Below, in pieces: positions 1 through 22,206 of a stretch of 32,000 nt of DNA (positions are counted from its first letter, which is position 1; each line of letters begins with the position of its first letter). Under the pieces are notes generated by a model. That model searched no databases. It worked only from the letters and a program-made list of their open reading frames with translations, and was not told where the DNA came from. The stretch spans positions 1-32,000 of the forward strand of contig NZ_MVHC01000005.1 in assembly GCF_002086455.1 (NCBI RefSeq). Direction: 5' to 3'. Source of the DNA: Mycolicibacter algericus DSM 45454. Its GTDB lineage: Bacteria > Actinomycetota > Actinomycetes > Mycobacteriales > Mycobacteriaceae. The translations under genes were made by a program, and so were the position numbers.

Positions 1-255
1 AAAAAGATCTGGTCGACCAACCCGTTGGAGCGTCTCAACCGCGAGATCAAGCGCCGAACCGACGTCGTCGGGGTCTTCCCGAATCCGGCCGCACTGCTGC
101 GGCTGGCCGGCTCGGTGCTCGTCGAAGCCCACGACGAATGGCAAGTCGCCGACAAGCGGTACCTATCCGAAGCCACCCTGGCCCTGCTCAAAACCAACGG
201 CCCCGGCAACAAACCCACCGAAAGCGTTGCCCCCACAGCGGCTCTCACGGCATAG
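1..255 (+). CDS. IS256-family transposase, C-terminal fragment (5' part lies outside the window)
   Basis: Frame 1 is open from nt 1 to the TAG at 253-255. The translation [55 protein letters not shown] is the conserved C-terminal block of IS256/IS1081/IS1245-type (mutator-like) transposases. Confidence 0.85.
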
Positions 256-325
256 TGAAAACCACAGAGCCTCACGCGGAAACGCTGGCCCTACTTACAC
301 CACCCCACGGGGCGCGACCTCCTGA
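1..325 (+). mobile_element. Right-hand end of an IS256-family insertion sequence (outer boundary not determinable)
   Basis: The transposase stop is at 255. IS256-type elements have only tens of bp between the stop codon and the terminal inverted repeat. The left IR is outside the window, so the true terminus (somewhere around 290-337) cannot be fixed. Confidence 0.45.
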
Positions 326-337
326 AATAGTGTTGAT

Positions 338-1108
338 GTGGCCGTCAACCGGATGAACCGTGAACAGTTCTTTTCAGCCATGTCTGGGCATGACGACGCG
401 GCGCTGCGCAAGGCGCTGTGGAACCTGTACTGGCGCGGCACCGCGGACGTGCGGCGGCGCATCGAAACTGAACTGGCCGGCGACATCCGCCCGGCTGCCA
501 AGTCGGAGCCGCTCGACCCGCAGACGGTGCACGACGAGGTGGTCCAGTTCGTGGAACTCGCTCGCTCGGGGGCGTATCTGGGGCGGGATCGCCGGGTGTC
601 GCCGAAGGAGCGCACCCGCTGGCGGTTCACCTTCAAGCAGCTGGCCACTGCCGCCGTGGAGGCCCTGCACGCCGGCGAGCCCACACCGGCGATCACGGCC
701 TTGACGCGGCTGATCGATCTGATTGTCGACGCCCGCGATACCTACTACTTCCGCAGCGAGGATCCGGTGTCGGCGGCCGGCTTCGTCGTCTCCGATGCCG
801 CCGCCGCGTTGTGGACCGCGACGTGGCGGCGGCACGGATTCCAGCGGTTCGCTGAAACCGCTGCGCCGCAACTGATTCGCTGGGAGTCCACACACGGCTG
901 GACTCGCTACGGTGACGGACCGATCGCCGCGAAGGAGACCACGCTCGCGGTTGTGCTGGCCGGCATGCTGACGGTCCCGGACGCTTGGGAGGGCTTCGCT
1001 GAGCAATACCGCAAGGCGCTGGGTAAACGCCGCGTCGGCAGCGGCGCACTGGCGGAGTTCGATCGGCTGATTCGGGAGAAACTCGCTGAGGGCTGGAGCG
1101 AGAGCTGA
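338..1108 (+). CDS. Hypothetical protein (256 aa from GTG 338; ATG 353 is an alternative start)
   Basis: Long ORF with strong third-position GC bias and ordinary amino-acid composition. The overlapping ORFs are Arg/Pro/Gly-rich artefacts. I recognise no motif. It lies directly next to the IS end. Confidence 0.6.
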   Translation: MAVNRMNREQFFSAMSGHDDAALRKALWNLYWRGTADVRRRIETELAGDIRPAAKSEPLDPQTVHDEVVQFVELARSGAYLGRDRRVSPKERTRWRFTFKQLATAAVEALHAGEPTPAITALTRLIDLIVDARDTYYFRSEDPVSAAGFVVSDAAAALWTATWRRHGFQRFAETAAPQLIRWESTHGWTRYGDGPIAAKETTLAVVLAGMLTVPDAWEGFAEQYRKALGKRRVGSGALAEFDRLIREKLAEGWSES

Positions 1109-1134
1109 TCCCTCCAGCCTCGGTGCCGGGCTGG
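1091..1134 (+). terminator. Possible alternative stem-loops at the 3' end of the 338..1108 gene
   Basis: GGCTGGAG (1091-1098) and CTCCAGCC (1112-1119) form an 8-bp inverted repeat spanning the TGA stop. CCAGCC (1114-1119) can alternatively pair with GGCTGG (1129-1134). No U-tract follows. Confidence 0.25.
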
Positions 1135-1313
1135 GCGGCGCGCTGGACGGGTGTTAACGCGCTGCAACCGAAGAACTACGACTACCTGCGAGGTGATGAC
1201 TATGGCGTCCAGGATCGACAAAACCATTGGATCGACCAGCTCGATACCACGGATCCATCGGTGACGGTGCGCGATGAAAGGCCCTGCCGTTCACAGCCAA
1301 CGCACCGGCGGCC

Positions 1314-1583
1314 TCACTGGTTGGCGAAAAACTCCGCCAACACATCGATGCCCGGCAGCAGCGACCGGGCGGACGGGCCGACGGCCCAGACCCTCCAATC
1401 ACTGGTATCGATCAGATCCAGCCCGGACATAATTGCGCACTGCGAATAGATCTGCCTGCGCACGTCGTCGATGGTCAGCGGGTTCCCACCTATCCGCCAG
1501 CGGTGACCGAGCAGTGGATGCACCTCGGTGGCGAGTTGGCCGACCGAAACTGCACCGCGGGCGGCCAGCAGCCCGGCGGTCAA
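1314..1583 (-). CDS. Hypothetical protein (89 aa from a TTG start; possibly frameshifted, N-terminus may reach 1642)
   Basis: About 80% third-position GC. The frame stays open upstream of the TTG without any ATG/GTG. A short ATG-initiated ORF in a neighbouring frame (ATG at 1642) runs into it; see findings. Confidence 0.45.
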   Translation of the reverse strand: MTAGLLAARGAVSVGQLATEVHPLLGHRWRIGGNPLTIDDVRRQIYSQCAIMSGLDLIDTSDWRVWAVGPSARSLLPGIDVLAEFFANQ

Positions 1584-1690
1584 CTCGATCAGCTGGGTCT
1601 CGAGGGCCCCGGCTCGAATGCCGCCCGAATCCGGCGCACCATGTTCAGATCATCGGCGGCGGCCGCGGCCAGCGACACTTCGATGCATTG

Positions 1691-1702
1691 CACTTATAAG
1701 TG
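1691..1702. promoter_or_regulatory. Perfect 12-bp palindrome CACTTATAAGTG in the divergent intergenic region
   Basis: Read directly from the sequence. It sits in a locally AT-rich patch between the minus-strand ORF (1314-1642) and the HTH gene (ATG 1749), which is a typical operator position. Confidence 0.4.
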
Positions 1703-1748
1703 AAACTGTCTATTCTGGCGGGAGCATGCAGTCGGAGGCGGGGAGAAG

Positions 1749-2213
1749 ATGGGCGTTGCACAGGAGCAGGCCTGCCGGACGAGCCTGACCATCGACGAGG
1801 CGGAGATCGCCGAAGCGCGCACCGTGTGCAGTTCGGTTGCCAAAGCGGGATCGGCCGCCACCGAGATCGAGTTTGCGGTCGGACCCGCCGGCGGGCAGTT
1901 GATGCCGATGCCGACAGCGCTTGCCGGACTCATGCGCGACATCCTTGGCGGGCTGAGTCGCGGCTCCACGATCACCATCCAACCGTTGCCACGGGAGTTG
2001 ACCACCACCACAGCTGCCAAGATGCTCGGCATCTCCAGGCCGACTCTGATGAAATTGGTCGCCGAGCAGAAGCTGCCGGCTCACAAGGTCGGCTCGCATA
2101 CCCGGCTGTCGGCCACCGATGTGCTGGCCTTCCGGAGGGACCGTCACGACGAACAGCGGCGCGCGTTCGATGAGCTGCGGAAACTGGATGAGGAGATCGG
2201 CATTGAGCCGTAG
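1749..2213 (+). CDS. Excisionase/MerR-type helix-turn-helix DNA-binding protein (154 aa)
   Basis: The C-terminal half TTTAAKMLGISRPTLMKLVAEQKLPAHKVGSHTRLSATDVLAFR is the classic excisionase-family HTH. A purine-rich RBS (ggaggcggggagaag) precedes ATG 1749. The N-terminal ~75 aa are unassigned. GC3 is high. Confidence 0.75.
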   Translation: MGVAQEQACRTSLTIDEAEIAEARTVCSSVAKAGSAATEIEFAVGPAGGQLMPMPTALAGLMRDILGGLSRGSTITIQPLPRELTTTTAAKMLGISRPTLMKLVAEQKLPAHKVGSHTRLSATDVLAFRRDRHDEQRRAFDELRKLDEEIGIEP

Positions 2214-2227
2214 CGTCCCACCGATGG

Positions 2228-5200
2228 ATGTCTGCCCCATCGGCTACCCTGCCGGCCATGGACCCCGGCGTCTACGAATCCCTACTCACCGAGCACCTGC
2301 ACGCCCAGCTGGCCCGTCACGCCGACCTGCGCCCCGACTTCGCTACGGTCGATGACGCCGAGCAGGCGCTGACGATCACCCGCTACTTGGCGCCGATCAT
2401 CGAGCGGTCGTTGCGCTCGGCCCGCACCGTCGAAGACCGCGTCGACTTGACCCATCGCATCCTGGAGCTGCTACCGGATACCGTCACCGACGGCGCCGCC
2501 CTGCGCACGGACGACCCTGGCAAGATCACCCGCCTCGACGAGGTGCGTCGCGCTAAGGCCCTGGCCGACAACAGACTCCCTCGCCCGGCCACCCCGTTCT
2601 CGGATGCCGCGCTGATGACCAATGGCCGTGGTGAGCCGACCTTGGCGGCCGAATTGCGCGCCGAGCTGGCCAGCGCGGATCGGGTGGATCTGCTGTGCGC
2701 GTTCGTCAAATGGCAGGGCCTGCGGCTGTTCGAAAAGGAACTCACCGAGCTGCGTGAACGCGACATTCCGTTGCGGGTCATCACCACCACCTACCTCGGC
2801 GCCACCGACGCTCGTGCGCTGGATGCCCTGGTGAACGAGTTCGGCGCCGAGGTGCGGGTCAACTACGACACCACCATCACCCGCCTGCACGCCAAGGCGT
2901 GGCTGCTGCGCCGCAACACCGGCTATCACACCGCCTACGTCGGCTCCAGCAACCTGTCGCACGCCGCCCTGGTCGACGGCTTGGAATGGAACGTGCGGCT
3001 GTCGGCGATCGGCACGCCACACCTGCTGGAGAAATTCCGGGCGACGTTCGATTCCTACTGGGAAAACCGTGATTTCGAGCCGTACCGTCCCGACCAGGAC
3101 GGTGAACGGCTCCGCCAAGCCCTGCAGAACGCATCCGGGCAGCGCAAACGTGACTCACTGGCCGTCACTTTGTCCGGTCTGGAAGTACGCCCCAAACCGT
3201 TTCAAGCCGAGATGCTGGAACAACTCGACGCCGAACGCACCTTGCACGATCGGCACCGCAACCTGATCGTCGCCGCCACCGGCACCGGCAAGACCGTGAT
3301 GGCCGCCCTGGACTACCGCCGGCTGGCCCGCGAGGTCCACGGCCGCGACCTCACCTTGTTGTTTGTCGCGCACCGCAAGGAGATCCTCGGCCAAGCCCAA
3401 CGCATGTACCGGGAGGCCCTCACCGACGCCACCTTCGGTGAACTGCTCGTCGACGGCCAACAGCCGACCAAGTGGCGACACGTGTTCGCCAGCATCCAAT
3501 CGCTGTCGGCGAACCGGCGGGCCGACATCGCCCCCGACCACTTCGACGTCGTCGTAGTCGACGAGTTCCACCACGCCGAAGCCGCCTCCTATCGTCGACT
3601 GCTCGGCCATGTACAACCGATTGAGTTGCTTGGGCTCACCGCCACCCCCGAACGCGCCGACGGTATCGACGTGCGGGCGTTCTTCGAGGGCCGCATCGCC
3701 GCCGAACTACGGCTCTGGGAAGCCCTGGAACAAAACCTGCTGTGTCCGTTCCACTATTTCGGCATCCACGACGACACCGACCTCGAAGCGGTGCAGTGGA
3801 AGCGTGGCGGGTACGACCTGGCTGCCCTCAGCGGGATCTACACCGGAAACGACGCCCGCACCCGCATCGTGCTCAAACAACTGCGCGACAAAGTCGGTGA
3901 CGTTGCGGCCATGCGCGCGTTGGGATTCTGCGTCAGCGTCGACCACGCCCGCTACATGGCCGACAGCTTCAACGACGCGGGCATTCCTGCGCTGGCGGTC
4001 TCAGCCGAGACGCCCGCCGACGAGCGTCGCTCCGCCCTTGCGGCGCTGCGCAACCGCGGCATCAACATCATTTTTGCCGTCGACCTGTTCAATGAGGGCC
4101 TGGATATTCCCGAGGTCGACACCGTGCTGTTCTTGCGGCCCACTGAAAGTGCCACCGTCTTTCTGCAGCAGCTTGGACGCGGGCTGCGACTCACCCATGG
4201 CAAGACCGTGCTGACGGCACTGGACTTCGTCGGCCATCAGCGCCGCGAGTTCCGCTTCGACCAACGCTTCCGGGCGCTGACCGGAACCGGCGGCAAAGCA
4301 CTGCAGCGCCAAGTGGAGCAGGGCTTTCCGTTCCTGCCGTCGGGCAGTCAGATCGTGCTCGACCGCGTCGCGCAGAAACTGGTGCTCGACAACATCAAAC
4401 AGCAAGTGGCGCCCCGCTGGGCGGCACTGGTCTCCGAAGTGCGAGCCCACCCCGGTGACCGGCTGGCCGGTTACCTTGGCGCTTACGGCCGCGAGCTTGC
4501 CGACATCCTGAAGAACAACCGGTCCTGGACCACACTGTGTCGCGAGACCGGCAAACAGGCCGCTGCTCCCGGCCCCCGCGAAACCGATCTGGTCAAACGC
4601 GTCCGCGCCCTGGCCCACGTCGACGACCGGCTGCGCTGGCAGACGTACCGGGCCATCCTCGACGGGCGCGTCGACCTGGCCAGCCCGGCCGAACATCGGC
4701 TGGCCGCGATGCTGTTCTATTCGCTGTTCCCCAACGGCGGCGGATTCCCCGATGTTGCAGCTGGACTCGACGCCTTGGGGGGCGAGCCCGTGACCGACGA
4801 GATGCGCCAGGTGATCGATATCGCCTTCGACGCCGCCCGCCGCAGCACCTACGATTTGGGCCGCTTCGTCCCGTCCTTGGCGGCGGTCCCACTGCAGGTG
4901 CACGCCACCTACTCGCGTGAAGAGATCCTCGCTGCGCTGGACTACGCCGCCCAGAACCGCACTCCGAGCACCATGCGCGAAGGAGTCGTGTGGCGCCCCG
5001 ACCTCAACACCGACGCATTCCTGATCACGCTGAAGAAATCCGAGACCGACTACTCACCGACCACCATGTACCGCGACTTCGCGCTCAGCGACCGGCTGTT
5101 CCACTGGGAGTCGCAATCTACCACTTCGGAGAACTCGCCAACCGGGCAGCGCTACATCCACCACCGCGAAAACGGCTCGCACATCCTGCTGTTCGTGCGC

Positions 5201-5359
5201 GCCGCCAAAACCAATGCACTCGGTGCCGCGCCGTATGTGTTTCTGGGCCCGGCCGACTACGTCTCGCATGAGGGCGAGAAGCCGATGGCGATCACCTGGC
5301 GACTGCACCAGCCGATGCCGGCGGAGGTATTCCAGGCCTCGAGTGTGGCGGTGGCGTAG
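2228..5359 (+). CDS. PLD-family nuclease / SF2 DExH helicase / DUF3427 fusion protein (1043 aa; ATG 2258 is an alternative start)
   Basis: HKD motif RLHAKAWLL..AYVGSSNLS starts at nt 2888. Walker A AATGTGKT lies at 3275-3295 and DEFHH at 3560-3574. The helicase C-domain includes LFLRPTESATVFLQQLGRGLR. The C-terminal ~150 aa (about 4886-5335; ..YRDFALSDRLFHWESQSTT..GQRYIHH..ILLFVR..YVFLGPADYVSHEGEKPMAITWRL) match my memory of the DUF3427 domain. Confidence 0.88.
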   Translation: MSAPSATLPAMDPGVYESLLTEHLHAQLARHADLRPDFATVDDAEQALTITRYLAPIIERSLRSARTVEDRVDLTHRILELLPDTVTDGAALRTDDPGKITRLDEVRRAKALADNRLPRPATPFSDAALMTNGRGEPTLAAELRAELASADRVDLLCAFVKWQGLRLFEKELTELRERDIPLRVITTTYLGATDARALDALVNEFGAEVRVNYDTTITRLHAKAWLLRRNTGYHTAYVGSSNLSHAALVDGLEWNVRLSAIGTPHLLEKFRATFDSYWENRDFEPYRPDQDGERLRQALQNASGQRKRDSLAVTLSGLEVRPKPFQAEMLEQLDAERTLHDRHRNLIVAATGTGKTVMAALDYRRLAREVHGRDLTLLFVAHRKEILGQAQRMYREALTDATFGELLVDGQQPTKWRHVFASIQSLSANRRADIAPDHFDVVVVDEFHHAEAASYRRLLGHVQPIELLGLTATPERADGIDVRAFFEGRIAAELRLWEALEQNLLCPFHYFGIHDDTDLEAVQWKRGGYDLAALSGIYTGNDARTRIVLKQLRDKVGDVAAMRALGFCVSVDHARYMADSFNDAGIPALAVSAETPADERRSALAALRNRGINIIFAVDLFNEGLDIPEVDTVLFLRPTESATVFLQQLGRGLRLTHGKTVLTALDFVGHQRREFRFDQRFRALTGTGGKALQRQVEQGFPFLPSGSQIVLDRVAQKLVLDNIKQQVAPRWAALVSEVRAHPGDRLAGYLGAYGRELADILKNNRSWTTLCRETGKQAAAPGPRETDLVKRVRALAHVDDRLRWQTYRAILDGRVDLASPAEHRLAAMLFYSLFPNGGGFPDVAAGLDALGGEPVTDEMRQVIDIAFDAARRSTYDLGRFVPSLAAVPLQVHATYSREEILAALDYAAQNRTPSTMREGVVWRPDLNTDAFLITLKKSETDYSPTTMYRDFALSDRLFHWESQSTTSENSPTGQRYIHHRENGSHILLFVRAAKTNALGAAPYVFLGPADYVSHEGEKPMAITWRLHQPMPAEVFQASSVAVA

Positions 5360-5382
5360 TGGGAAGGGGTCAGCCCTTCCCA
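5360..5382. terminator. Hairpin between convergent genes
   Basis: TGGGAAGG-ggtcagc-CCTTCCCA forms a perfect 8-bp stem with a 7-nt loop. It starts 1 nt after the helicase stop codon and overlaps the stop of the minus-strand mini-HTH remnant. Confidence 0.4.
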
Positions 5383-5514
5383 AACCGCTGGTAGGCAGCC
5401 TGGCGGCTGGTGCCGAGCGCAGCGCCGATCGCGTCCCACGTGTCGCCGGCTGCCCGGGCAGCCGGCGACGGCAGCGCGCAGGCCGGCATCGGCGGTGTCT
5501 ACTGCTTCGACCAT
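5370..5514 (-). pseudogene. Remnant or frameshifted mini helix-turn-helix gene
   Basis: The minus-strand frame ending at TGA (5370-5372) reads ..[30 protein letters not shown], a typical actinobacterial HTH C-terminus. It is only 39 codons from its sole ATG (5489). The adjacent frame (ATG 5514) reads [18 protein letters not shown].. and would join it with a 1-nt shift near 5460. Confidence 0.3.
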
Positions 5515-5624
5515 CGTGATGAGTCCTCCACGGTCTGCTCATCTTTCACTTTCGCCATGGTGATCTGGCGGAGATTCCCAGCGGGGCGCCGGTGATCTTC
5601 ATCGTGGACTCCAGCGGAGCAGAT

Positions 5625-6641
5625 TCAGGCCCATCGCTGCGCGATCGCTTGCATCGACGGGTCCACGCCGCCGTAGCTGACGAGCCGGACATCCAGACCG
5701 GCCCGCTCCACAATCCGCAGGGCCCGCTCGATGGCGGCGTCGATCCATTCAGCGGCGTTAGCGAATGCACCGCCCCCGACTCGTGTGAGTAGCACCGTGC
5801 TCGAGCCGCCCGCGGTGGCCTGCTCGGCCGCGGACAGCAGCGTTGCCTCGTAGGCGGCCTCCAGCACCAGCTGGGCGAACGGCCCCCACTGCGCGCTCGG
5901 GATGCGGCTGTAGGCCACCGGCAGCGCCGAGCAGTAGGCCTGTGAGACCGAGCGACGGGGATCGCCTGTCGCATCGGTGACTTCAACGTTGCGGTGCAGT
6001 CCGATCGCCAACTCGCCGCGCAAAGCATCGCGCTGATCAGCGCCGGCCTGATCCAGCAGAGCAGCGATGGCGCGCAGGCCCTCGACGGTGCACAGCGCGT
6101 AGCCGTTGCGCATCTCCCACAGCTCGGTCACCGGCCGCGACAGCAACTCGGACAGTGCGACGCCGACATCAGCCAGCGTGTCGAGCTGCCGGTCCCGCGC
6201 CTGGCCGATCTCGTCGCCGATTGGCACCAGATAGTTGCGGTAGATGGTGCCGGCGCCGGCGGCGACCGCACACGCCGGGCCCTGGGTGGGATCGTCGAGG
6301 TACCGCGTCACGCCCTGCTCGGGGGTGACATGCTGGGAAACCATCTCTAGCAGATTGAACTGCGAGGCAACCTGAAACAGTGCGTCGGCAAATTCCGGAT
6401 CCGCGTGCAGCGCGCGGGAATCACCGACCAGGCAGCGGACGGTGTTGCGACCGGCGTCACCCATTCTTACCCGCTCTCGTAGGTCGGCCAACGTCGGTAG
6501 CGACAGCTCGCCGATGCCATACCGTTTGCCGTTGACGGAGGAGACGAGCTCGTCACCGTCGACGGACAGTCGGGCCTGGGTGGACTCGTAATCGCCTTCG
6601 GCGAAACCGGTCAGGCTCGCAAACCAGTCACGGGAGGTCAT
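5625..6641 (-). CDS. Hypothetical protein, possibly a divergent PARG-like/macrodomain-fold protein (338 aa; the longer ORF reaches 6695)
   Basis: Clean high-GC3 ORF. I favour ATG 6641 (MTSRDWF..) with GAGG upstream. FQVASQFN..TQGPACAVAAGAGTIY (from about 6377 downward) and LLTRVGGGAFAN (5757-5786) resemble the ..FASxxN..QEExxC..LY and ..GCGxFGN blocks of bacterial PARG/DUF2263 macrodomain proteins, but the GGG-QEE catalytic signature is absent. The CDS is well supported; the functional guess deserves about 0.3. Confidence 0.75.
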   Translation of the reverse strand: MTSRDWFASLTGFAEGDYESTQARLSVDGDELVSSVNGKRYGIGELSLPTLADLRERVRMGDAGRNTVRCLVGDSRALHADPEFADALFQVASQFNLLEMVSQHVTPEQGVTRYLDDPTQGPACAVAAGAGTIYRNYLVPIGDEIGQARDRQLDTLADVGVALSELLSRPVTELWEMRNGYALCTVEGLRAIAALLDQAGADQRDALRGELAIGLHRNVEVTDATGDPRRSVSQAYCSALPVAYSRIPSAQWGPFAQLVLEAAYEATLLSAAEQATAGGSSTVLLTRVGGGAFANAAEWIDAAIERALRIVERAGLDVRLVSYGGVDPSMQAIAQRWA

Positions 6642-7170
6642 CTTCAAATATTCGCACCTCGCAACTGATTCGGTATCCGCCTTCGACCGCGCCACGTCGG
6701 CCGACCAGTGTGGCAGTCGCTTGGCCGTGCGGTACTGCGGTAACGGTCCCGGCCAGCTCCTCGATGAGCAGCTGGCCAGCGCCGTCGTCGACGACGAACT
6801 GTCACTGGCCGCGGCCGACGAGAACGCCGGTCATCGGCGGCTTCGGCGCTTTCATAGCCGAGCAACGCGGAGGCGAGGGCCGCTGCACCGCGACGTTGGC
6901 CCAGTTCGACATCGAATACGAGGTCGCCTACCGCGGTATCGACCTCGAGCAGGTGCCGCCGCTGACGCTGCAGCCGCGTGGTAGCACCGACACCGGCACT
7001 GAAATCCCTACATGCCGCTGAGCGTGGCGAGGCAGATGTGGCGGGCCGGGGCCAGGTATTCCCGCGACTCCGCCTCCTAACACGACATAACGTGCGTTGT
7101 CGCGCGAAGCCGGGCAACAACGACATATGTCCGACGCCCGGTGTCACACCCCACTCGTAGCGTGCCTGTC

Positions 7171-8151
7171 ATGAACGCGTTGGTAACCCGCGCCCGCACG
7201 GCACTGCGGTCCGGCGCCGGACCCGTCGCCGCCTCGGTGTTCGTCGTCGGGCTGGCCGGATCGACCGGGTGGGCCATCACCGTCGCCGTCCTGGCCGCGC
7301 TGGCCTTCGCCGGCTACGTCGCGGCGCCGTGGCTCGAGGAGCAACGGGGCACCGCCGCGCGGCGCCGCGAGGCGATCCGGGAACGCGCCGACCGGCAGCA
7401 CCGCTGGGCGCTGCGCGGCGACAACAGAGGCTTCTACGGCGCCGAAGGCGCGGAGTTGATGCGCCGCATCGCCGACGAACCGGACCCGGGCGAGATCGGC
7501 GACCCGGCCGACGTTGCCGCCGTGGCCTACACGGCCGACGGTCTGACCACGCTGCTGGCCGAACGGCCGGCCTGCTGGCGCTACGCGGTCTTCGTCTCGG
7601 TGCTGGTGCAGCGGTACGCGGTGTTACAACCGCGGCTACGCGACCAGCAGCTCGGCTACGCCCCACCCAAAGGCGCCCGCAGGTACAGCGGATTTGCGCT
7701 GGGGCAGTATCTGTTTGGTCTCCTCGAGCAGATGTCGGCGCTGCTGAGACAGATCGAGGACCTGATGCTCAGCCCGGCCTTCCGGCGGATGTTCGGAGAC
7801 CCCACCGACGAGCGCAGCGCCGATGCCGACGCCATCATGCACGCGGCGCACCGGCTGATGGACCTACACGAGCGGCTGCTGGAGTTGGCCGAAAGCTGCC
7901 GCAGCACAAATACCCCGGTGGAGTACGCCGACGTCGTGCGCGACTGCGCCCGCGTCTTCGACGTTCCGCTGGAGGGCTACCGCAGGTTCATCGACGAGTT
8001 CGTGGGCCGCGTCGCCGAACTGCGCGACGTGCTGCCCTATGCGCGCGGCACCATCGAGATGGACCCGGTCCTGCTGGAAATAGATGACAACGACGAACTT
8101 CTCGACAAGGCGTTCGCGGCAATCAGCAAGCTGGTACCCGGTGCTCGGTGA
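7171..8151 (+). CDS. N-terminally membrane-anchored hypothetical protein (326 aa; GTG 7141 is an alternative start)
   Basis: High-GC3 ORF. It has hydrophobic segments (VAASVFVVGLAGSTGWAITVAVLAALAFAGYVAA) followed by a charged helix and the motif AIRERADRQHRWALRGDNRGFYG. The remaining ~230 aa carry no recognisable motif. Confidence 0.72.
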   Translation: MNALVTRARTALRSGAGPVAASVFVVGLAGSTGWAITVAVLAALAFAGYVAAPWLEEQRGTAARRREAIRERADRQHRWALRGDNRGFYGAEGAELMRRIADEPDPGEIGDPADVAAVAYTADGLTTLLAERPACWRYAVFVSVLVQRYAVLQPRLRDQQLGYAPPKGARRYSGFALGQYLFGLLEQMSALLRQIEDLMLSPAFRRMFGDPTDERSADADAIMHAAHRLMDLHERLLELAESCRSTNTPVEYADVVRDCARVFDVPLEGYRRFIDEFVGRVAELRDVLPYARGTIEMDPVLLEIDDNDELLDKAFAAISKLVPGAR

Positions 8152-8169
8152 CCGCCCGCACGTAGCGTC

Positions 8170-8538
8170 TCAGGCCGTGGCTGCGCCGCCTTGCCTGTCG
8201 ATGACCTGCTGGATCAGCTCGGCGATGTGCTGTTGCCCTGCGGCGGTCAGGTCGAACTTGGCCCGAATCTCGGCGAAGCCGGTGGCCACGTCGCTGAAGC
8301 CGCCGGTCAGCTCCTGCCTCATATCGAGCATGTCTTCGCGCAGTGCGTTGAAACTGGTATTTGTGGCCTGGCGGAAGTCCCGGAGTTCGTCGCCAAGCTC
8401 CCCGACGTCGCGATCAGCCCCGCCGGCCAGCACGCGCGCTGCCGCCGCGTCCTGCTCGCTGGCCCGCACCCGGTCGCGCAGCTCGCGCACCTGCTCCTCG
8501 AGCGCGGCGACCCGCGGCTCCAGACCCTCGTCCTGCAT
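8170..8538 (-). CDS. Hypothetical coiled-coil protein (122 aa)
   Basis: I chose the start at ATG 8538 (MQDEGLEPRVAALEEQVRELRDRVRASEQD..). The sequence is heptad-like and charged. The upstream part of the ORF (to 8637) is Arg/Pro/Cys-rich and unlikely to be coding. Confidence 0.6.
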   Translation of the reverse strand: MQDEGLEPRVAALEEQVRELRDRVRASEQDAAAARVLAGGADRDVGELGDELRDFRQATNTSFNALREDMLDMRQELTGGFSDVATGFAEIRAKFDLTAAGQQHIAELIQQVIDRQGGAATA

Positions 8539-8662
8539 GCTCGCAGCGTACGCCAGTGGCCCAAGCCGGCAAGTCACCCGCGGGGACGTCGGGCACCACC
8601 GTCGTCGGCGTGGCGAATTCCCGAACAGCGGCCACATCGACCCTGATGGCCCGGGCCGCAGG

Positions 8663-10738
8663 TCAGTCGGCCCGGGCTGTCCCCAACGGATCCCCGTACT
8701 CGTCGTCCAGCTCCGACGGTGCGAGCCATCGGCTCAGAAAGCCGACCAGCTCCACCGGATCGGGCTCGTCGTCAAGCAGTGTGAGCAGCTCATCGCGCTC
8801 ATCGGGCTCAACCGGGTCAATTCCGCCGAAGAACGCGAAACCCTCGACGGTCGGCAGCACCCGCGAGCAGATCAGCTGCCCGGGATCCAGCGCGCGGCCC
8901 CGCTCGGTGACCTCGAGACTCTCGCCGGTGCGCACGTCGCGCACGGTGACGCTGTGGCCGGGGCGGGCCTGCTCGACTTCGAACACCGAGCGCGGCACCC
9001 CCAGCCATTGCTCGGCCAGCTGCCGTTCGTCCTCGGGCAGCAATTCACCACGTAACTGCAGGAATTCGGCGAACGCCCCGCCCTCGAACAGCACCGTGTC
9101 GATCGCCAGCGGGTCGGTCTTGGCCGCCGCCACCAGATCATCGATCTCATCCTCGACGTAGCGGATGCGTTCGTAACCGGCCAGCAGCAACAACTCGCCC
9201 CACTCGCCGCCGAGCACCTGTTGGTGGGCCTTGGCGTAGAGCCAGCGCACCCGCTCGGCCAGCGACAGCTGCTCATTGCCCAGGTGGCACTTCTTGTACT
9301 TGCGGCCCGACCCGCACCAGCACGGCTCGTTTCGGCCGACGTCGGTACGCGGCTGTGCCCGATGCTGTTCCAGCAGACGCACCAGCGGGTGATCGGCTCC
9401 GACGCCGGCGCGCCGCAGCAGCCCCAAACCCGCCTCGGCGTCGCCGCGGTCGGAGGCGATCCGGGCCAGCGTCAGCAACGTCAGTGGCCAGTCCGGGTCC
9501 AATGATTCGGCGGCCAACAGCTCGCGTTCGCACCCGGCGACATCGCCCAGCCCCTCGCACGCCATCGCCTGCAGCCAGTGCGTCGCCACCCGCGCCGAGC
9601 GCGGCACCTTGGACTGCAGCGACTCGGCGAGGATGCCCAGCGCGGCGGCACCCCGCCGGCCGGCGCTGGTCGCTTCCTCCATCAAGGACAGCGCCAGCAC
9701 CGGATTGGCCAGTGCCGCACCCAGTTCGCCGAGAACCTCCGCGTAGTGTCCGTCGGCGGGCTCGGTGTCGGCGGGGGCGTCGACGGTGGCCTCCTCCTCG
9801 TCTTCTGCGTCGATTGCGAGGTCGAGCACCTGCGCCATCTGAGCGTGCATCTCGACCAGCGTGGTCAGCACGAAGGCATCGTCGTCATCGAGGCCGTACT
9901 GGTCGGCCAGCCGCGCGCACTTGCGCTCGAAGCGCCACCGCTGGAAGTCGAAGCCGGCCGGTGCCAGCCAGCCGCCGCTGCGGGCCAGCCCGTGCTGGTC
10001 GGCGATCTCGCTGAGCGGGGCGGCCGGGGCGGTGAACAGTGCGGGGTCGGTCGCGCAGGCCGCCCACACCACCGAGGCGAAATGCGACGGGGATTCATCG
10101 GCGTCGAGCTGAGCCGCCAGCCGACCGCCGAGCGTCGGGTCGGTGGTCGCGGCGACCGGCTCCAAACCGATTCCCTTGTTGGTCAACCGCATTCCGAGCA
10201 GATCGCCGGCGGCCACCCCCAGGCCGGCCAGCGTGCCCGGGCTCAGCAGCAGGGCGCCGGGCTCGTCGACCAGCTCGAGCGGGATGCCGCGCTCCTCCAG
10301 CAGTTCGTCGTCGTAGCCGGGCACTACGACCGACACCGGGGAGCCGTCGGCGAGCTCGGCATAGTCGTCGTCGCACAGTTCGGTGATCGGGTCCAGGTCC
10401 GGGCCGGTCGCCAGCAAGTCATGGGTGAGCTCCTCGGCGGTGAGCCGGTGGGTGAAGACCCGCCCGGCCAGCAGTGCCGGCAACCACACCCACCGGCCGT
10501 CGGGCAGCGGGCGGGCCGGGCAGCTGAACTCATTGAGCAACTCGTCGATGACGGCGTCTGGGTCGGCGATCCCGGCCTCGTGCAGCCGGTCGGCGATGTC
10601 GTCCTTGGACGCCGGCCCGTGCTCGGTCAGGATCGCCGCAAGTGTCGGTACCGCGTCGGAGGGTTCGGTCACGGTTGACACCTTAAGGTCGGTGGGCCAG
10701 CGGCGCAGCCATCCGGATGTCGGAGTCCACTGAGACAA
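8663..10738 (-). CDS. SEC-C motif (zinc-knuckle) domain protein with an acidic linker and TPR-like helical region (up to 691 aa; start uncertain)
   Basis: NEPCWCGSGRKYKKCH lies at 9284-9331 and is the SEC-C CxC..CH motif. The ORF is long with high GC3. Candidate starts are TTG 10738, GTG 10681 and GTG 10672. Confidence 0.82.
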   Translation of the reverse strand: MSQWTPTSGWLRRWPTDLKVSTVTEPSDAVPTLAAILTEHGPASKDDIADRLHEAGIADPDAVIDELLNEFSCPARPLPDGRWVWLPALLAGRVFTHRLTAEELTHDLLATGPDLDPITELCDDDYAELADGSPVSVVVPGYDDELLEERGIPLELVDEPGALLLSPGTLAGLGVAAGDLLGMRLTNKGIGLEPVAATTDPTLGGRLAAQLDADESPSHFASVVWAACATDPALFTAPAAPLSEIADQHGLARSGGWLAPAGFDFQRWRFERKCARLADQYGLDDDDAFVLTTLVEMHAQMAQVLDLAIDAEDEEEATVDAPADTEPADGHYAEVLGELGAALANPVLALSLMEEATSAGRRGAAALGILAESLQSKVPRSARVATHWLQAMACEGLGDVAGCERELLAAESLDPDWPLTLLTLARIASDRGDAEAGLGLLRRAGVGADHPLVRLLEQHRAQPRTDVGRNEPCWCGSGRKYKKCHLGNEQLSLAERVRWLYAKAHQQVLGGEWGELLLLAGYERIRYVEDEIDDLVAAAKTDPLAIDTVLFEGGAFAEFLQLRGELLPEDERQLAEQWLGVPRSVFEVEQARPGHSVTVRDVRTGESLEVTERGRALDPGQLICSRVLPTVEGFAFFGGIDPVEPDERDELLTLLDDEPDPVELVGFLSRWLAPSELDDEYGDPLGTARAD

Positions 10739-10767
10739 TGGAACTACCAGGAGATTGGAGGGCCCCG

Positions 10768-11772
10768 ATGGCAGCGTCCACGGTGCACGGGTACGACATC
10801 ATCGGCGACGTCCACGGCTGCGCCGACCAATTGGAGGCGTTACTGGCCAAGCTCGGCTACGAAACCACCGGTGGTGCAGCGGAATACCGTCACCCGGATC
10901 GGCAAGTGGTGTTCGTCGGCGATTTGATCGACCGCGGCCCAGGGCAACTGCGGGTGCTGGCAGTAGCCAAGGCCATGGTCGACGCGGGCAGCGCCCAGAT
11001 CGTCATGGGCAACCACGAATTCAACGCGCTGGGCTACCACCACGAACATCCGGCGGGCAGCGGGAAATACCTGCGCCCACATGGTGGCTCGGACGGCCCG
11101 TGGTCGGGCAAGAACACCAAGCAGCACTGGGACTTTCTGGACCAGGTGACCGGCGAAGACCGGCGCCACTACCTGGAGTGGTTCGCCACCCTGCCGTTGT
11201 GGCTGGACCTGGGCGTGCTGCGCGTCGTGCACGCCTGCTGGCACCAGGAATCGATGGCAGCGGTTCAAGAGCACTGCAAAACCAACGCCCCCTTTGCCGA
11301 TGCGGGTCATCTGGTGGCGGCACACGACAAGGAGCACGCGCTCTACGACGCGATCGAGATCCTGCTCAAGGGCCCCGAGATCAGCCTGGTCGAGCGCGGC
11401 CAGCTCAAGTACAAGGACAAGGACGGCAACGACCGCGAGAAAGCCCGCATGCGCTGGTGGGACAGCGGCGCGCGCACCCTGCGCGACGTCGCGGTAATGA
11501 GCAGTAGCTACACCACCACGGAGGGAGAGCCTTACCCGCCGCTGCCGGAGCTGCCACTGCTGGACGGCACCGAGTCGTTCGTTTATACCGGCGACGTCCC
11601 GGTGTTCTACGGCCACTACTGGCGGCAGGGCTCGCCCGCGCTCGGTGAGGACTTCACCGAGCGCACCGCGTGCGTGGACTTCAGCGCCGTCAAAGACGAC
11701 GGGACGCTGACCGCCTACCGCTGGTCAGGGGAGCGCCGGATCCGGCCCGAGAACTACGTGCAGGTCGGGTGA
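10768..11772 (+). CDS. Calcineurin-like metallophosphoesterase, ApaH/PrpA (diadenosine tetraphosphatase / Ser-Thr phosphatase) type (334 aa)
   Basis: Three motifs occur in the canonical order: YDIIGDVHGC, VFVGDLIDRGP and VMGNHE. ATG 10768 is preceded by GGAGATTGGAGGG. The ORF extension back to 10717 is unlikely to be coding. Confidence 0.85.
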   Translation: MAASTVHGYDIIGDVHGCADQLEALLAKLGYETTGGAAEYRHPDRQVVFVGDLIDRGPGQLRVLAVAKAMVDAGSAQIVMGNHEFNALGYHHEHPAGSGKYLRPHGGSDGPWSGKNTKQHWDFLDQVTGEDRRHYLEWFATLPLWLDLGVLRVVHACWHQESMAAVQEHCKTNAPFADAGHLVAAHDKEHALYDAIEILLKGPEISLVERGQLKYKDKDGNDREKARMRWWDSGARTLRDVAVMSSSYTTTEGEPYPPLPELPLLDGTESFVYTGDVPVFYGHYWRQGSPALGEDFTERTACVDFSAVKDDGTLTAYRWSGERRIRPENYVQVG

Positions 11773-11777
11773 CGGGC

Positions 11778-11795
11778 GATAGCGCCGGCGCTATC
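11778..11795. terminator. Perfect 18-bp palindrome 6 nt after the phosphoesterase stop
   Basis: GATAGCGCC|GGCGCTATC. As RNA this would give a ~7-bp stem with a tetraloop. No U-tract follows, which is common in mycobacteria. Confidence 0.45.
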
Positions 11796-11844
11796 CGATT
11801 GGAAACTGCCCACACCGTTCGTCGAGGGCGGCCGGCGCAACACG

Positions 11845-11876
11845 CTGGTACCATCAAGACGGTAGGAAGGTACCAG
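11845..11876. promoter_or_regulatory. 8-bp inverted repeat bracketing the vapB ribosome-binding site (candidate TA operator or RBS-occluding hairpin)
   Basis: CTGGTACC (11845-11852) and GGTACCAG (11869-11876) are separated by 16 nt (atcaagacggtaggaa). The right arm ends 2 nt before ATG 11879. Confidence 0.4.
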
Positions 11877-11878
11877 TC

Positions 11879-12124
11879 ATGGCGTTGAACATCAAAGATC
11901 CGTCGGTTCATGAAGCGGTCAAAGAGATCGCCAGGATCACCGGTGAATCCCAGGCGCAGGCCGTCGCGGCCGCAGTGCGGGACCGGCTGGCTCGCCTGCA
12001 GGCGGATGACGTCACTGACCGGCTGCTTGCTATCGGTCGCCGGACCGCGGCTCGCATGAGCCCGGAGGCGAAGCGAGTCGACCATGGCGCGCTGCTTTAC
12101 GACGAGCGCGGCCTGCCCGCATGA
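11879..12124 (+). CDS. vapB: VapB antitoxin, Rv0623/VapB30-like (81 aa)
   Basis: [25 protein letters not shown]...YDERGLPA closely follows my memory of M. tuberculosis VapB30 (MALSIKHP...YDERGLPA). A 4-nt ATGA overlap links it to the downstream PIN gene. Confidence 0.85.
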
Positions 12125-12519
12125 TCGCCGACACCTCGGCAATCATCGCGATCCTCCGAGATGAAGCGGACGCGGATCGCTATGCCCGGGCGATCGCCCG
12201 GGCGCAGACCCGTCGACTGTCCGCGGCGTCCTATCTCGAATGTGGGATCGTCTTGGACTCCCAGCGCGATCCGATCATCAGCAGAGCGTTGGATGAATTC
12301 CTCGACGAGGCCGGCTTTGTGGTCGAGCCGGTAACCGAGCGGCAGGCTCGGCTGGCCCGACAGGCCTACATCGACTTCGGGAAGGGCAGCGGGCATCCAG
12401 CGAGTTTGAACTTCGGGGACTGCCTCTCCTACGCCCTGGCGACTGACCTTCGTGAACCACTGCTGTGGAAGGGCGACGACTTCGGCCACACCGGAATTCA
12501 CTCCGCTGTCGACGAATAG
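12121..12519 (+). CDS. vapC: VapC PIN-domain ribonuclease toxin, VapC30-like (132 aa)
   Basis: [12 protein letters not shown].., SYLECGIVL and [20 protein letters not shown] show the PIN acidic-residue pattern and the VapC30-type C-terminus. Confidence 0.9.
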
Positions 12520-12539
12520 CCCGCTACCCTGAGGCACAC

Positions 12540-14074: not shown

Positions 14075-14125
14075 TTCGCCCCAACCACAGCAGCCGTAGT
14101 CCCCGAACGTGGCACGCTCATCGGC

Positions 14126-15769
14126 GTGCCCGTTTCACTGCCGGAAAACCCGAGGTTCGCCAACTCCTCCGAGCGCCACGTCTACCAGGCGCTGATCGAG
14201 CAACTCCAGGACGGTGACGTCGTGGTCGCGGGCCAGCGCGTCACCGACCACCTCAAAGACCACGAAATCGACTTCGTCGTCGCGATCGAGGGCGCCGGCG
14301 TCATCTGCATCGAGGTCAAAGGCGGCGAAGTCTGGCACGACGGGTCCGGGTGGCGTCAGATGCGCGGCGGCAAGAAGTGTCGGATCGAACCCGTGCGCCA
14401 GGCCCGCGAGGCCTGTTATGCGCTGCGGGACTACATCGAAAACGACAGGCGCTGGACGCAGGACCGGCTGCGTTGGGATCACGTCGTGGCGTTGCCGCAC
14501 ACCGAGCTGCCGGCCGACTTCGAACTCCCGGACTGCCCGCGCTGGAAGGTGATCGACCGCAACGACCTGCCGCAACTGGTGTCTCGGCTGCGCCACGTGC
14601 TGATCCGCCAGGAGCTGGACCGGCCGCTGCTGACCGCCGAAGGCATCGAGCAGTTCCGCACCGCGCTCGGCGGGCGTGGGTTGCCGCAGCGTGATGTCGT
14701 CGCCCGAGCGTTGGCCAACGACAGTGCCGCTGACGCTCTCACCGAACAGCAGGCCGTGATCCTGGAGGCTATCCGGCTGCTCAACCGGGTACAGGTGCGC
14801 GGCAGTGCCGGCAGCGGGAAGACCTACCTGGCCGTGGAACAGGCGCGCCGGCTGTCGGCTGATGGGAAACGTGTTGCACTGCTGTGCTATTCGCACGGCT
14901 TGGCGTCCTACCTCAAGCGGCTCACCGGGACCTGGCAGCGCCGCCAGCAGCCGGCCTACGTCGGCGAATTCCATTCCCTGGGTGTGGAATGGGGCGCCCC
15001 CGGCGGCCCGACGCACCCGGAGGAGTCGGTGCGCTTCTGGGAGGAGCAGCTGCCGCAGCAGATGCTCGAGTTGGCGCAAAACATCGACGACGGGCAACGG
15101 TTCGACGCGGTGGTGGTCGACGAGGCCCAGGACTTCGCCGACGCCTGGTGGGATCCGGTGCTGGCGTCACTGCGTGACGACGAAGAGGGCGGGCTGTTCG
15201 TGTTCAGCGATGAGGGCCAGCGAGTCTTCGACCGGCAGGGCACCCCGCCGGTGCCGCTGGTCCCACTCGTGCTGGACCGCAACCTGCGCAACACCCGCCA
15301 GATCGCCACCACGTTCCAGCCGCTGGTGGATCACCCGATCCGCTACCTGGGCGCCGACGGGCCCGAGGTCCACTTCGTGCCGTGCAGCCGGGCTGACGCG
15401 GCGGACAACGGCGACGATCAGGTCGAGAAGCTGCTCGATGACGGCTGGCGTCCCGAAGACGTGGCCTTGCTGACCACCGGCAGCCGCCACCCCGAGCAGG
15501 TGGCCCGCCAGGAACGGGGCAATCAGGCCTACTGGGACAGCTTTTGGGATGCCGATCAGGTCTTCTATGGACATGTGCTGGGGTTCAAGGGATTAGAGCG
15601 GCGCGCCGTCGTGCTGGTGGTCGACGCCGCCGGGCCGGTCGAGCGGGCCAGAGAACGGCTTTACGTCGGAATGTCGCGGGCCCGGGACCAACTCGTGGTC
15701 TGCGGGGACCCGGATTTCATCGCCCAGGTGGGCGGGTCGGACTTGGCGCGCAAGCTGGGGATCGAGTAG
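14126..15769 (+). CDS. NERD-domain nuclease fused to a P-loop SF1 (UvrD/PcrA-like) helicase/ATPase (547 aa)
   Basis: The N-terminus SERHVYQAL..DHEIDFVVAIEGAGVICIEVKGG is the NERD (D/E..ExK restriction-fold) pattern. Walker A GSAGSGKT lies at 14801-14824 and Walker B VVVDEAQDF at about 15113-15139. The C-terminal YVGMSRARDQLVV is the SF1 motif VI-like block. The start is GTG. Confidence 0.85.
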   Translation: MPVSLPENPRFANSSERHVYQALIEQLQDGDVVVAGQRVTDHLKDHEIDFVVAIEGAGVICIEVKGGEVWHDGSGWRQMRGGKKCRIEPVRQAREACYALRDYIENDRRWTQDRLRWDHVVALPHTELPADFELPDCPRWKVIDRNDLPQLVSRLRHVLIRQELDRPLLTAEGIEQFRTALGGRGLPQRDVVARALANDSAADALTEQQAVILEAIRLLNRVQVRGSAGSGKTYLAVEQARRLSADGKRVALLCYSHGLASYLKRLTGTWQRRQQPAYVGEFHSLGVEWGAPGGPTHPEESVRFWEEQLPQQMLELAQNIDDGQRFDAVVVDEAQDFADAWWDPVLASLRDDEEGGLFVFSDEGQRVFDRQGTPPVPLVPLVLDRNLRNTRQIATTFQPLVDHPIRYLGADGPEVHFVPCSRADAADNGDDQVEKLLDDGWRPEDVALLTTGSRHPEQVARQERGNQAYWDSFWDADQVFYGHVLGFKGLERRAVVLVVDAAGPVERARERLYVGMSRARDQLVVCGDPDFIAQVGGSDLARKLGIE

Positions 15770-15772
15770 CGG

Positions 15773-16903
15773 TCACTCCCACGAGGGCGGGAAGGCGATG
15801 TCGAGCCGCGTCGTCTGCTTGTAGCCCGACCAGGTCGGCACCCCGGCCGGTTGCATCCGATAAACCCCGACGGCGGCGGCCACCACGCGGTCGCGTTGCG
15901 TCGGCCACCCGATTTCGGCGGCGATCTGCTCTAGTACGCCTTGATCCCGGTCAAGCACCTGGTCGATGATCGGCACCGCCGGCAAAGCGTTGCTCTTGTC
16001 GCCATTGCAGCGAGTGCAGGCCAGCACCAGGTTGGCCAGGCCGTCGATGCCGACCAGCGACCACGGCAGCACATGATCGATCGGATTGCCGGCCGGCAGA
16101 TGCGTCGAACAGTAGAAGCAATGCGGCCCGAATGCGTCCTTTAACGGCTCGCGGACCTTCTCCAGCGCGGTTCGCTCCCGGCCGAACAAGTGGCCGGCGA
16201 CGTCTGGAACGTCGGCATGCAGAAACTTGTTCATCCGGCGAACATCGTCGACCCACATGATCTCCAGGGCAGGCTTCAGCAGTCCGGCTAATCGGGCGAG
16301 GCCATGGGCTACGCCAGGTTTCAGTTCGATCGAGTAGCCGCGGACCCGTTTGGCGGAGCTGCTCGGCTTCTGCAGGAATGCATCGTCGTAAAGAAAGGGA
16401 TCGCTTTCAGCTGCACCGCCAAAGCGCTGGAGGCGACGAAGTGGTTCGCCGGCCAGACACACGCTGACCTCGTCTAGCGCTGTTTCGTAGGCATGAGGGA
16501 CCCGGCTGACCGCGACATCGAGCGGCACCCTGCTGTTGGCGACGTGTGCCGCAGCGCGCAACCGTCGCGCGGCGTTGGGGATCACCCCCTTCGGCCCGCC
16601 TGTCATCTGCGACAGAACTTGGCCCTCGAACGGACGCACTTGCAACCAATAGATTTCCAGCACCCGGTGGGCCAACGCCGGAATCGAGACCTCGAGAACG
16701 TCATCGGGACTCGCCGGAACGTTTTCGATGCAGTGGTCGATCAAGGCCATCAACGTGGCGAGCTTGTAGGTCGCCGTGCGCAGGCCGGTCTCCAGGATGG
16801 CCACCACCCGCTGCCCGAGCAACAGGGGATCACCGTCGGTGTGGCGCACCTTTGAATTATGGCTGGACGGGAGCGGATGTGAGTTGTCCACAGGCGAACT
16901 CAA
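15773..16903 (-). CDS. HNH (beta-beta-alpha-Me) endonuclease with a large unassigned N-terminal region (376 aa; TTG start uncertain)
   Basis: CFYC..NPIDHVLPWS..GLANLVLACTRCNGDKSN lies at 15989-16120 and is a canonical CxxC/DH/N/CxxC HNH core. The first ~250 aa (..TATYKLATLMALIDHCIEN..) carry no motif I can name. The stop codon is 3 nt from the convergent helicase stop. Confidence 0.85.
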   Translation of the reverse strand: MSSPVDNSHPLPSSHNSKVRHTDGDPLLLGQRVVAILETGLRTATYKLATLMALIDHCIENVPASPDDVLEVSIPALAHRVLEIYWLQVRPFEGQVLSQMTGGPKGVIPNAARRLRAAAHVANSRVPLDVAVSRVPHAYETALDEVSVCLAGEPLRRLQRFGGAAESDPFLYDDAFLQKPSSSAKRVRGYSIELKPGVAHGLARLAGLLKPALEIMWVDDVRRMNKFLHADVPDVAGHLFGRERTALEKVREPLKDAFGPHCFYCSTHLPAGNPIDHVLPWSLVGIDGLANLVLACTRCNGDKSNALPAVPIIDQVLDRDQGVLEQIAAEIGWPTQRDRVVAAAVGVYRMQPAGVPTWSGYKQTTRLDIAFPPSWE

Positions 16904-17769: not shown

Positions 17770-17855
17770 GCTACGAGTGTAGCTGCCCAGGCTCACCCCG
17801 TCCTCGGAACATGCGTCCAGCACGAATGCGACCGCCGACAACTATCGTCGAGACG

Positions 17856-22172: not shown

Positions 22173-22206
22173 GGTCCTCACGGTAGAGCGGGGGACCGAC
22201 AGCCCG

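Follow-up and report, generated by a model that had tools for sequence, protein, structure and literature searches.

What does a very large open reading frame do that begins a few nucleotides (nt) behind a gene for a small DNA-binding protein, and do the two genes belong together? This question is raised by a stretch of 32,000 nt from Mycolicibacter algericus DSM 45454 (contig NZ_MVHC01000005.1, positions 1 to 32,000), the whole of which is called the window hereafter. In it, a gene for a 154-amino-acid (aa) protein with a helix-turn-helix (HTH) domain is followed on the same strand by an open reading frame (ORF), first called at 2228-5359(+), of 1043 aa. The original prediction, made from the DNA letters and their ORFs, regarded the two as one defense module, in which the HTH protein controls a nuclease-helicase as its regulator or antitoxin. 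Here, we propose another arrangement: the large gene would encode a restriction enzyme of the SauUSI type, it would carry its own promoter of the kind recognized by the transcription factor PafBC, and the HTH gene would be unrelated to it. We give this reading as a whole a probability of about 0.7.

Identity of the Large Protein

Before the large protein is compared with others, its N-terminus must be fixed. Translation most likely starts at ATG 2258, which gives a protein of 1033 aa. Annotated homologs have this length in most cases, the triplet at 2228 is ATG, GTG, CTG or TTG in relatives, and conserved translation begins at 2258 and not at 2228. Therefore, the gap behind the HTH gene is 44 nt long and holds the promoter-like element described below. 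The tight coupling claimed earlier, with 14 nt between the two genes, is right for the ORFs as they were called but does not survive the change of the start codon.

What kind of protein is it, then? Very likely, it is a SauUSI-family restriction enzyme, stand-alone and of the modification-dependent Type IV, as judged from matches to domain, system and structure collections. In the numbering of the 1043-aa ORF, the PADLOC model PDLC03659 mREase_IV ("Type IV methyl-directed restriction enzyme") matches residues 119-1039 with 1093 bits and is covered from position 16 to 940 of its 945, while the other mREase_IV model of PADLOC, PDLC03658, yields 265 bits only. The closest solved structure is SauUSI of Staphylococcus aureus (7clg_A), with E 2.5e-81 for the single sequence and E 3.4e-99 for the family profile. 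Pfam finds PLDc_2 at 170-278 (E 6e-7), ResIII at 320-476 (E 6e-33), Helicase_C at 563-655 (E 4e-13) and DUF3427 (PF11907) at 886-1036 (E 1.2e-22). The protein is composed, from its N-terminus, of an extension of about 108 residues, a phospholipase D (PLD)-type nuclease, a superfamily 2 (SF2) translocase, a presumed helical coupler region, and a DUF3427/SRA-like target-recognition domain (TRD). SauUSI itself is an ATP-dependent Type IV enzyme which cuts DNA containing 5-methylcytosine (5mC) or 5-hydroxymethylcytosine (5hmC), and it is built from a dimer-forming PLD nuclease, an SF2 translocase, a helical coupler and a C-terminal DUF3427 TRD with an SRA fold (PMC3141236, PMC6765204, PMC7913695).

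The likeness extends to the residues expected to do the work. HxK, GSSNLS, GTGKT, DEFH, TATPER and QQLGRGLR can be aligned with SauUSI, and none of them varies in a family alignment of 30 sequences. "LHAKAW" of the large protein stands opposite "FHAKGY" of SauUSI, which holds the 119-HxK motif, and the HxK residues, H221 and K223 in the 1043-aa numbering, are H211 and K213 of the 1033-aa protein. In the latter numbering, the profile aligns residues 920-1003 to SauUSI 839-918, by which D940 comes opposite D858 and W950 opposite W868, and both D940 and W950 are invariant in the same 30 sequences. In the model of SauUSI, the flipped base is in contact with Asp-858, and Trp-868 forms part of the pocket wall (PMC7913695). 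The coupler gives no sequence alignment to SauUSI 618-805; AlphaFold2 (AF2) places helices over about 669-863 of the large protein, in a poor model (mean pLDDT 50, pTM 0.34) with low confidence over 689-771. The N-terminal extension (window 2258-2581), which neither SauUSI nor the PADLOC model has, is conserved with its "G-x-Y-E-S-L-L-T" start even in myxobacterial homologs of 50% identity and is predicted to be helical with low confidence. No methyltransferase domain was found among the window proteins scanned, nor in the ORFs of the 15.8-17.8 kb region read by eye.

By analogy with SauUSI, the enzyme would dimerize through its PLD nuclease domains, and its C-terminal DUF3427/SRA-like domain would recognize foreign DNA by flipping out a modified cytosine, either 5mC or 5hmC. 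This recognition would activate the SF2 ATPase to translocate along the DNA, and the PLD active site would then cleave both strands. From its sequence, the protein is classed as an ordinary member of an already known family, a single-polypeptide nuclease-helicase defense enzyme. The original prediction had correctly described the ORF as a fusion of an HKD nuclease motif, an SF2 helicase and DUF3427; the motifs it quoted are all there, and they too do not vary among the 30 aligned sequences. Its guess that DUF3427 could read nucleic acids or modified bases in a single-effector defense enzyme agrees, as to the modified base, with what is known of the SauUSI family. In calling DUF3427 a domain with no assigned function, it was behind the literature, as this domain is the TRD of SauUSI.

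Distribution of the Large Gene

We compared 80 homologous loci with 50-98% protein identity, which are mostly mycobacterial and come otherwise from other actinobacteria and myxobacteria. Nucleotide homology to the closest relatives spans only about 2226-5359, and to the locus L006, with 96% DNA identity, 2230-5359. Since the flanks differ between relatives, the large gene moves as a single unit. Clustering of all flanking ORFs revealed no universal neighbor; the commonest, a protein with an HNH motif, is present in 11 of the 80 loci. At some other loci, the gene lies beside defense-type proteins, which are Hhe/Mko-like or DpdE/ZorD-like, and such neighbors fit a defense role and define no fixed system.

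Some genomes have two copies of the SauUSI-like gene. Those of M. acidiphilus (L005 and L007) are about 10 kb apart on contig NZ_JAHCLR010000044.1, and those of M. engbaekii (L009 and L045), with 85% and 73% identity to the window protein, are on separate contigs. The gene appears to be missing from M. smegmatis and M. tuberculosis, as judged from ranked lists of best relatives: neither species is found among the best 80 loci or among the best 120 relatives of the M. wolinskyi copy, and the latter include a copy from M. fortuitum (P0254).

The HTH Gene and Its Missing Partner

If the large protein works alone, what is the HTH gene in front of it? Residues 84-132 of its product match Pfam HTH_17 (E 1e-12) and TIGR01764 "excise" (E 8e-14), a winged helix of the excisionase/MerR type. 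No family match and no solved fold was obtained for the N-terminal half, in line with what had been noted from the sequence at the outset. The AF2 model of the protein has a pLDDT of 88, and with it Foldseek searches of the PDB match the C-terminal winged helix only, with Xis, BldC, RacA and RdfS as hits (E at least 0.017).

The genomic contexts of the two families tell more. An HTH homolog lies upstream of the large gene in none of the 80 homologous loci, and a lack of conservation of this pairing had been named beforehand as a result that speaks against a two-gene module. The only other locus with both genes is that of M. longobardus (L008), in which they are 5 kb apart and the HTH gene is followed by a gene for a PIN_3 protein. 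The HTH family is actinobacterial and well populated, with 426 matches. In nine of nine sampled contexts outside the window (M. chelonae, Mycobacterium sp. pUA109, Mycolicibacter icosiumassiliensis, a plasmid of Prescottella equi, Nocardia cyriacigeorgica, Paenarthrobacter, Amycolatopsis, Georgenia and the M. longobardus locus), its members are followed 15-64 nt downstream by a PIN_3 gene of about 200 aa, which in Nocardia cyriacigeorgica is fused with a TetR gene. The gene organization suggests that these pairs are toxin-antitoxin systems; our literature search found no experimental publication on the HTH_17/PIN_3 family.

Neither a PIN_3 homolog nor a remnant of one is present anywhere in the window, and homology to the HTH-PIN_3 pair of M. 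longobardus ends exactly at the stop codon of the HTH gene. Therefore, the HTH gene has been orphaned, and the restriction gene with its promoter occupies the exact place where PIN_3 would be. We consider it highly probable from these comparisons that the HTH gene is the antitoxin-like half of an HTH_17/PIN_3 pair, unrelated to the large gene and not its controller. The two genes meet at the same junction in M. novum (AP022562.1), whose sequence matches the window with 95% identity from 319 onward, and their adjacency is an accident of one lineage.

As a separate observation, HTH_17/PIN_3 pairs adjoin prophage-type genes in M. chelonae (L081/L082) and in Mycobacterium sp. pUA109 (L083/L084), with a tape-measure gene in one and a terminase gene in the other, and the pair may often be prophage-borne.

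A Promoter-Like Element in the Gap

How might the expression of the large gene be controlled? Window positions 2229-2250 read TGTCTGCCCCATCGGCTACCCT. The gap thus has the order TGTCTG-CCCCATCGGC-TACCCT, then 7 nt, and then ATG 2258, which is the geometry of a leaderless gene. PafBC, a WYL-domain activator of mycobacteria's LexA-independent response to DNA damage, has the in vivo consensus tGTCgg(N10)tA(N3)T, in which a specific -26 element is combined with a normal -10 element and no -35 element (PMC8635444). If transcription starts at A2258, the presumed leaderless start, the GTC of the gap is located at -28 to -26; PafBC-dependent promoters have their -26 element at about -23 to -28 from the transcription start. 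Near the large gene, we found no match to a sigma-70-type -35/-10 promoter and no LexA SOS box; two weak matches to the latter elsewhere in the window are at the level of chance.

Sixty-four of the loci offer enough upstream sequence for a comparison. GTC-N12-TAN3T starts at -28/-27 from the start codon in 54 of them, against a single match in 36,672 surrounding control positions. When these 64 upstream regions are aligned without selection for the motif, conservation stays at background (0.3-0.45) up to 2228, and it is 0.82-0.98 on the T-G-T-C that begins at 2229 and 0.94-0.97 on the T, A and T of the -10 element. In the window itself, TGTC-N12-TAN3T has four matches against 0.46 expected, a number that none of 100 shuffles reached, and all the four are exactly 7 nt before an ATG, namely those at 2258(+), 7171(+), 22172(-) and 30541(-). 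The ATG at 30541 belongs to recC, the first gene of recC-recB-recD, and M. smegmatis without pafBC contains less RecB protein (PMC5656591).

On these grounds, the large gene probably has a portable, leaderless promoter of the PafBC type that is functional. PafBC, on sensing single-stranded DNA, would then raise the expression of the gene, for example in DNA damage, prophage induction or infection. For the wider view that a clade of SauUSI-type genes in Mycobacteriaceae consists of mobile, self-promoted members of the PafBC regulon, each travelling with a leaderless promoter of about 30 nt, the odds seem to us slightly better than even. The predicted damage-inducible wiring is the only new element here, the enzyme itself being of a known kind. 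In the literature, we found no link between DUF3427 or SauUSI and PafBC; this search did not check the published regulon lists directly.

Weighing the Alternatives

What speaks against this picture? On the side of the promoter, the dependence on PafBC is a prediction that is computational throughout. Ten of the 64 loci have no exact motif, and the motif is confined to the copies in Mycobacteriaceae, being absent from those of Kineosporia, Agromyces, Kitasatospora, Streptomyces, Micrococcus and myxobacteria. Its conservation could partly reflect the common descent of a short block that is carried along with the gene. recBCD of M. tuberculosis was reported to be without such an element and not to be induced (PMC8151990), so that recC, taken as an internal control, is itself only a prediction. 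No terminator was found in the 44-nt gap, and read-through from the HTH gene into the large gene is thus possible. On the side of the enzyme, the TRD segment has weak similarity to that of SauUSI (E 0.003 in the profile alignment), and the base modification recognized may be another than 5mC. For the full-length 1033-aa protein, the AF2 model, made from 30 homologs which were too alike (74-92% identity), is poor over 925-968 as well, and too poor to confirm the fold of the TRD; it was set aside, and no fold search was run from it. Finally, the N-terminal extension has no family match in Pfam or NCBIfam and is the part that this reading leaves unexplained.

Could the two genes form a module after all, with the HTH protein as dedicated regulator or antitoxin of the nuclease-helicase? 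They lie on the same strand, the scan detected no terminator between them, the HTH family resembles antitoxins, and M. novum has kept the junction at 95% identity. However, both genomes with this junction are of one lineage and count as a single event. With the pairing missing from 80 of 80 homologous loci, PIN_3 as the conserved partner of the HTH family in every context sampled, and a conserved promoter-like element of the large gene's own in the gap, we regard such a module as highly improbable. A somewhat less remote proposal concerns the function of the enzyme. The mycobacterial clade might be a damage-induced repair helicase-nuclease, with DUF3427 as the reader of a base in host DNA that is damaged or alkylated. 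A promoter like that of repair genes, the presence of the same element before recC in the window, the N-terminal extension that SauUSI lacks, and the weak similarity of the TRD would all suit this idea. It is set against a patchy distribution, with movement of a single gene between varied contexts and two copies in some genomes, as is typical for a defense gene and not for core repair. Neighbors often include defense-type genes, and the equivalents of SauUSI D858 and W868, modelled to contact and enclose the flipped 5mC, are invariant. Repair is therefore improbable in our view.

The promoter itself can also be read otherwise. The conserved upstream block might be an ordinary SigA -10 promoter together with an element that has nothing to do with PafBC, either the site of another regulator or a hitch-hiking sequence, and the gene would then be constitutive. 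TANNNT serves mycobacteria as a generic -10 element, and many of their genes are leaderless (PMC8635444); moreover, two positions outside the published consensus, G 2243 and C 2252, are conserved too, and the PafBC motif in this genus is a prediction only. Nevertheless, conservation is highest at just those positions that the published PafBC consensus specifies, with its spacing kept, the same motif stands at the same 7-nt distance before recC and two other genes of the window, with four matches against 0.46 expected, and it is virtually missing from the background around the 64 loci. We hence think a plain SigA promoter unlikely, though of the three alternatives it has the most in its favor, and continue with a SauUSI-type enzyme under its own PafBC-type promoter.

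Surrounding Genes and Elements

Table 1. Features of the window discussed in the text, in order of position.
Feature	Position	Strand	Evidence and remarks
C-terminal end of an IS256-family (Transposase_mut) transposase	25-255	+	PF00872 positions 338-378 of 379, E 5.6e-12
Orphan antitoxin-like gene, HTH_17 (probable)	1749-2213	+	154 aa; Pfam HTH_17, TIGR01764; PIN_3 partner missing
PafBC-type (RecA-NDp) bipartite promoter (predicted)	2229-2250	+	-26 TGTCTG 2229-2234; 10-nt spacer; -10 TACCCT 2245-2250
SauUSI-family Type IV restriction enzyme (predicted)	2258-5359	+	1033 aa; PADLOC, PDB 7clg_A, Pfam, homolog lengths
PLD-family nuclease domain	2735-3061	+	HxK and GSSNLS; PLDc_2 E 6e-7; aligned to SauUSI 119-HxK
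SF2 helicase-like ATPase	3185-4192	+	Walker A GTGKT, motif II DEFH, TATPER, motif VI QQLGRGLR; ResIII, Helicase_C
DUF3427 target-recognition domain	4883-5335	+	PF11907 E 1.2e-22; equivalents of SauUSI Asp-858/Trp-868 kept
Perfect 9-bp hairpin	5360-5382	+	Arms 5360-5368/5374-5382; directly after stop codon; no T-run
Small converging ORF	5370-5489	-	Ends inside hairpin; C-terminus HTH-like by look; no family match
PafBC-type motif (predicted)	7142-7163	+	TGTCACACCCCACTCGTAGCGT; second exact motif, 7 nt before ATG 7171
Gene for 326-aa protein	7171-8151	+	No Pfam, NCBIfam or PADLOC match
NERD and UvrD-like helicase	14075-15769	+	PADLOC RTasNERD-Hel (DRT-associated model), E 2.6e-38
HNH-motif protein	15773-16903	-	376 aa; homologous to commonest neighbor of the large gene (11/80 loci)
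VapC-type PIN toxin	17113-17505	-	130 aa; putative, by eye
Phd/YefM-like antitoxin	17512-17841	-	109 aa; putative, by eye; precedes VapC-type PIN toxin
ORF just downstream of recD	21837-22172	-	111 aa; hydrophobic N-terminal stretch; no family match
PafBC-type motif (predicted)	22180-22201	-	Fourth motif, 7 nt before ATG 22172
recC-recB-recD operon	22207-30541	-	Exonuc_V_gamma/RecC_C, UvrD-helicase/PDDEXK_1, RecD_N/AAA_30
PafBC-type motif (predicted)	30549-30570	-	Motif scan; 7 nt upstream of recC ATG 30541

How does the transcript of the large gene end? The original prediction had seen a terminator-like hairpin here, and a perfect hairpin is indeed present (folding energy -24 kcal/mol, z = -2.1), but it is not called by the terminator scan, as it has no run of T. 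One possibility is a factor-independent terminator of the mycobacterial type; another is a stop in both directions, which it would share with the small ORF that converges on it. A stretch with 78% identity to this ORF is found in another locus (L026), at a different place.

The transposase end was likewise recognized at the outset, and its ORF lies about 1.5 kb from the HTH gene, the end of the insertion sequence (IS) being at about 318. M. novum has no counterpart of window 1-318 and is 95% identical over 319-11790, and the IS256 end is a strain-specific insertion. We considered this IS as the origin of the junction between the HTH gene and the large gene, and rejected it, as M. novum has the same junction without the IS. 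The stretch 11790-12521 has no aligned counterpart in M. novum.

From position 1 up to about 17.8 kb, the window has the look of a variable island, with the IS end, several genes without family match, a SEC-C protein, the NERD/UvrD-like helicase, the HNH protein and the VapBC-like pair. The helicase and the HNH gene, which converge, may be a further defense module. The VapBC-like pair is located in a stretch of the window with lower GC (0.63). To the left of the part that corresponds to the window, M. novum (L098 1-5352) has an AAA_23/SMC_N ATPase of more than 820 aa and a 1125-aa helicase-nuclease with PDDEXK, RNase_H_2, AAA_11 and AAA_12 domains. The variable, defense-like island probably extends beyond the left edge of the window. 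Among the genes behind the other motifs, that for the 326-aa protein has homologs near the large gene in 7 of the 80 loci, and its product may be an uncharacterized member of the damage regulon. No RNA family of Rfam was found in the window, and Pfam and NCBIfam gave no match for the small ORFs.

What Would It Mean?

The apparent operon of the HTH gene and the large gene should not be propagated by annotators as a two-gene system. If the large gene depends on PafBC, a defense gene would be plugged in trans into a global damage regulon that senses single-stranded DNA, by means of a portable promoter. Restriction of modified DNA would then be switched on by a sensor of the host wherever the gene lands, and the damage response would be linked to defense against phages and plasmids. 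Why has such a gene not been noticed in studies of the regulon? Its apparent absence from M. smegmatis and M. tuberculosis could explain this. There may also be a practical side. Type IV enzymes are major barriers to transformation with DNA grown in Escherichia coli, which is Dcm-methylated. Under PafBC control, electroporation or antibiotic stress could raise this barrier in M. fortuitum and related species.

Comparison with Known Systems

To which known systems can this locus be compared? As to the HTH gene, the relatives are the HTH_17/PIN_3 pairs known in Mycobacteroides, Mycobacterium, Mycolicibacter, Prescottella, Nocardia, Paenarthrobacter, Amycolatopsis and Georgenia. The 154-aa protein belongs to their HTH family over its full length, with 40-99% identity, and the locus differs from these pairs in that the PIN_3 half is absent and a restriction gene stands in its place. 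As to the large protein, SauUSI (PDB 7CLG) is likewise one polypeptide with PLD nuclease, SF2 ATPase and C-terminal DUF3427 TRD in the same order. The HxK motif, Walker A, a motif II of the DExH type, TATPER and motif VI can be aligned, Asp and Trp of the TRD are conserved, and no methyltransferase partner was found. Unlike SauUSI, the large protein has about 108 additional residues at its N-terminus, its coupler shows no detectable similarity and its TRD a weak one, and it fits the sister model PDLC03659 far better than PDLC03658. Its gene has the predicted leaderless promoter of the PafBC type, whereas we found no description of such a promoter for SauUSI.

The element in the gap resembles the promoters of the PafBC regulon in being bipartite, tGTCgg(N10)tA(N3)T, in having no -35 element, and in keeping its position among mycobacterial copies of the gene. 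The regulon as known from M. smegmatis and M. tuberculosis consists mostly of chromosomal genes for DNA repair, while here the element is attached to a patchily distributed restriction gene that moves horizontally, with a dependence on PafBC that is predicted only. In another respect, the locus recalls BrxR of BREX and CapW of CBASS, as a WYL-domain transcription factor that senses single-stranded DNA would gate a system against phages or foreign DNA (PMC9122601, PMC11804915). The regulators of those systems are encoded beside them and usually repress. In contrast, the predicted regulator of the large gene is PafBC, a global chromosomal activator acting in trans, and the gene itself would carry the binding element only.

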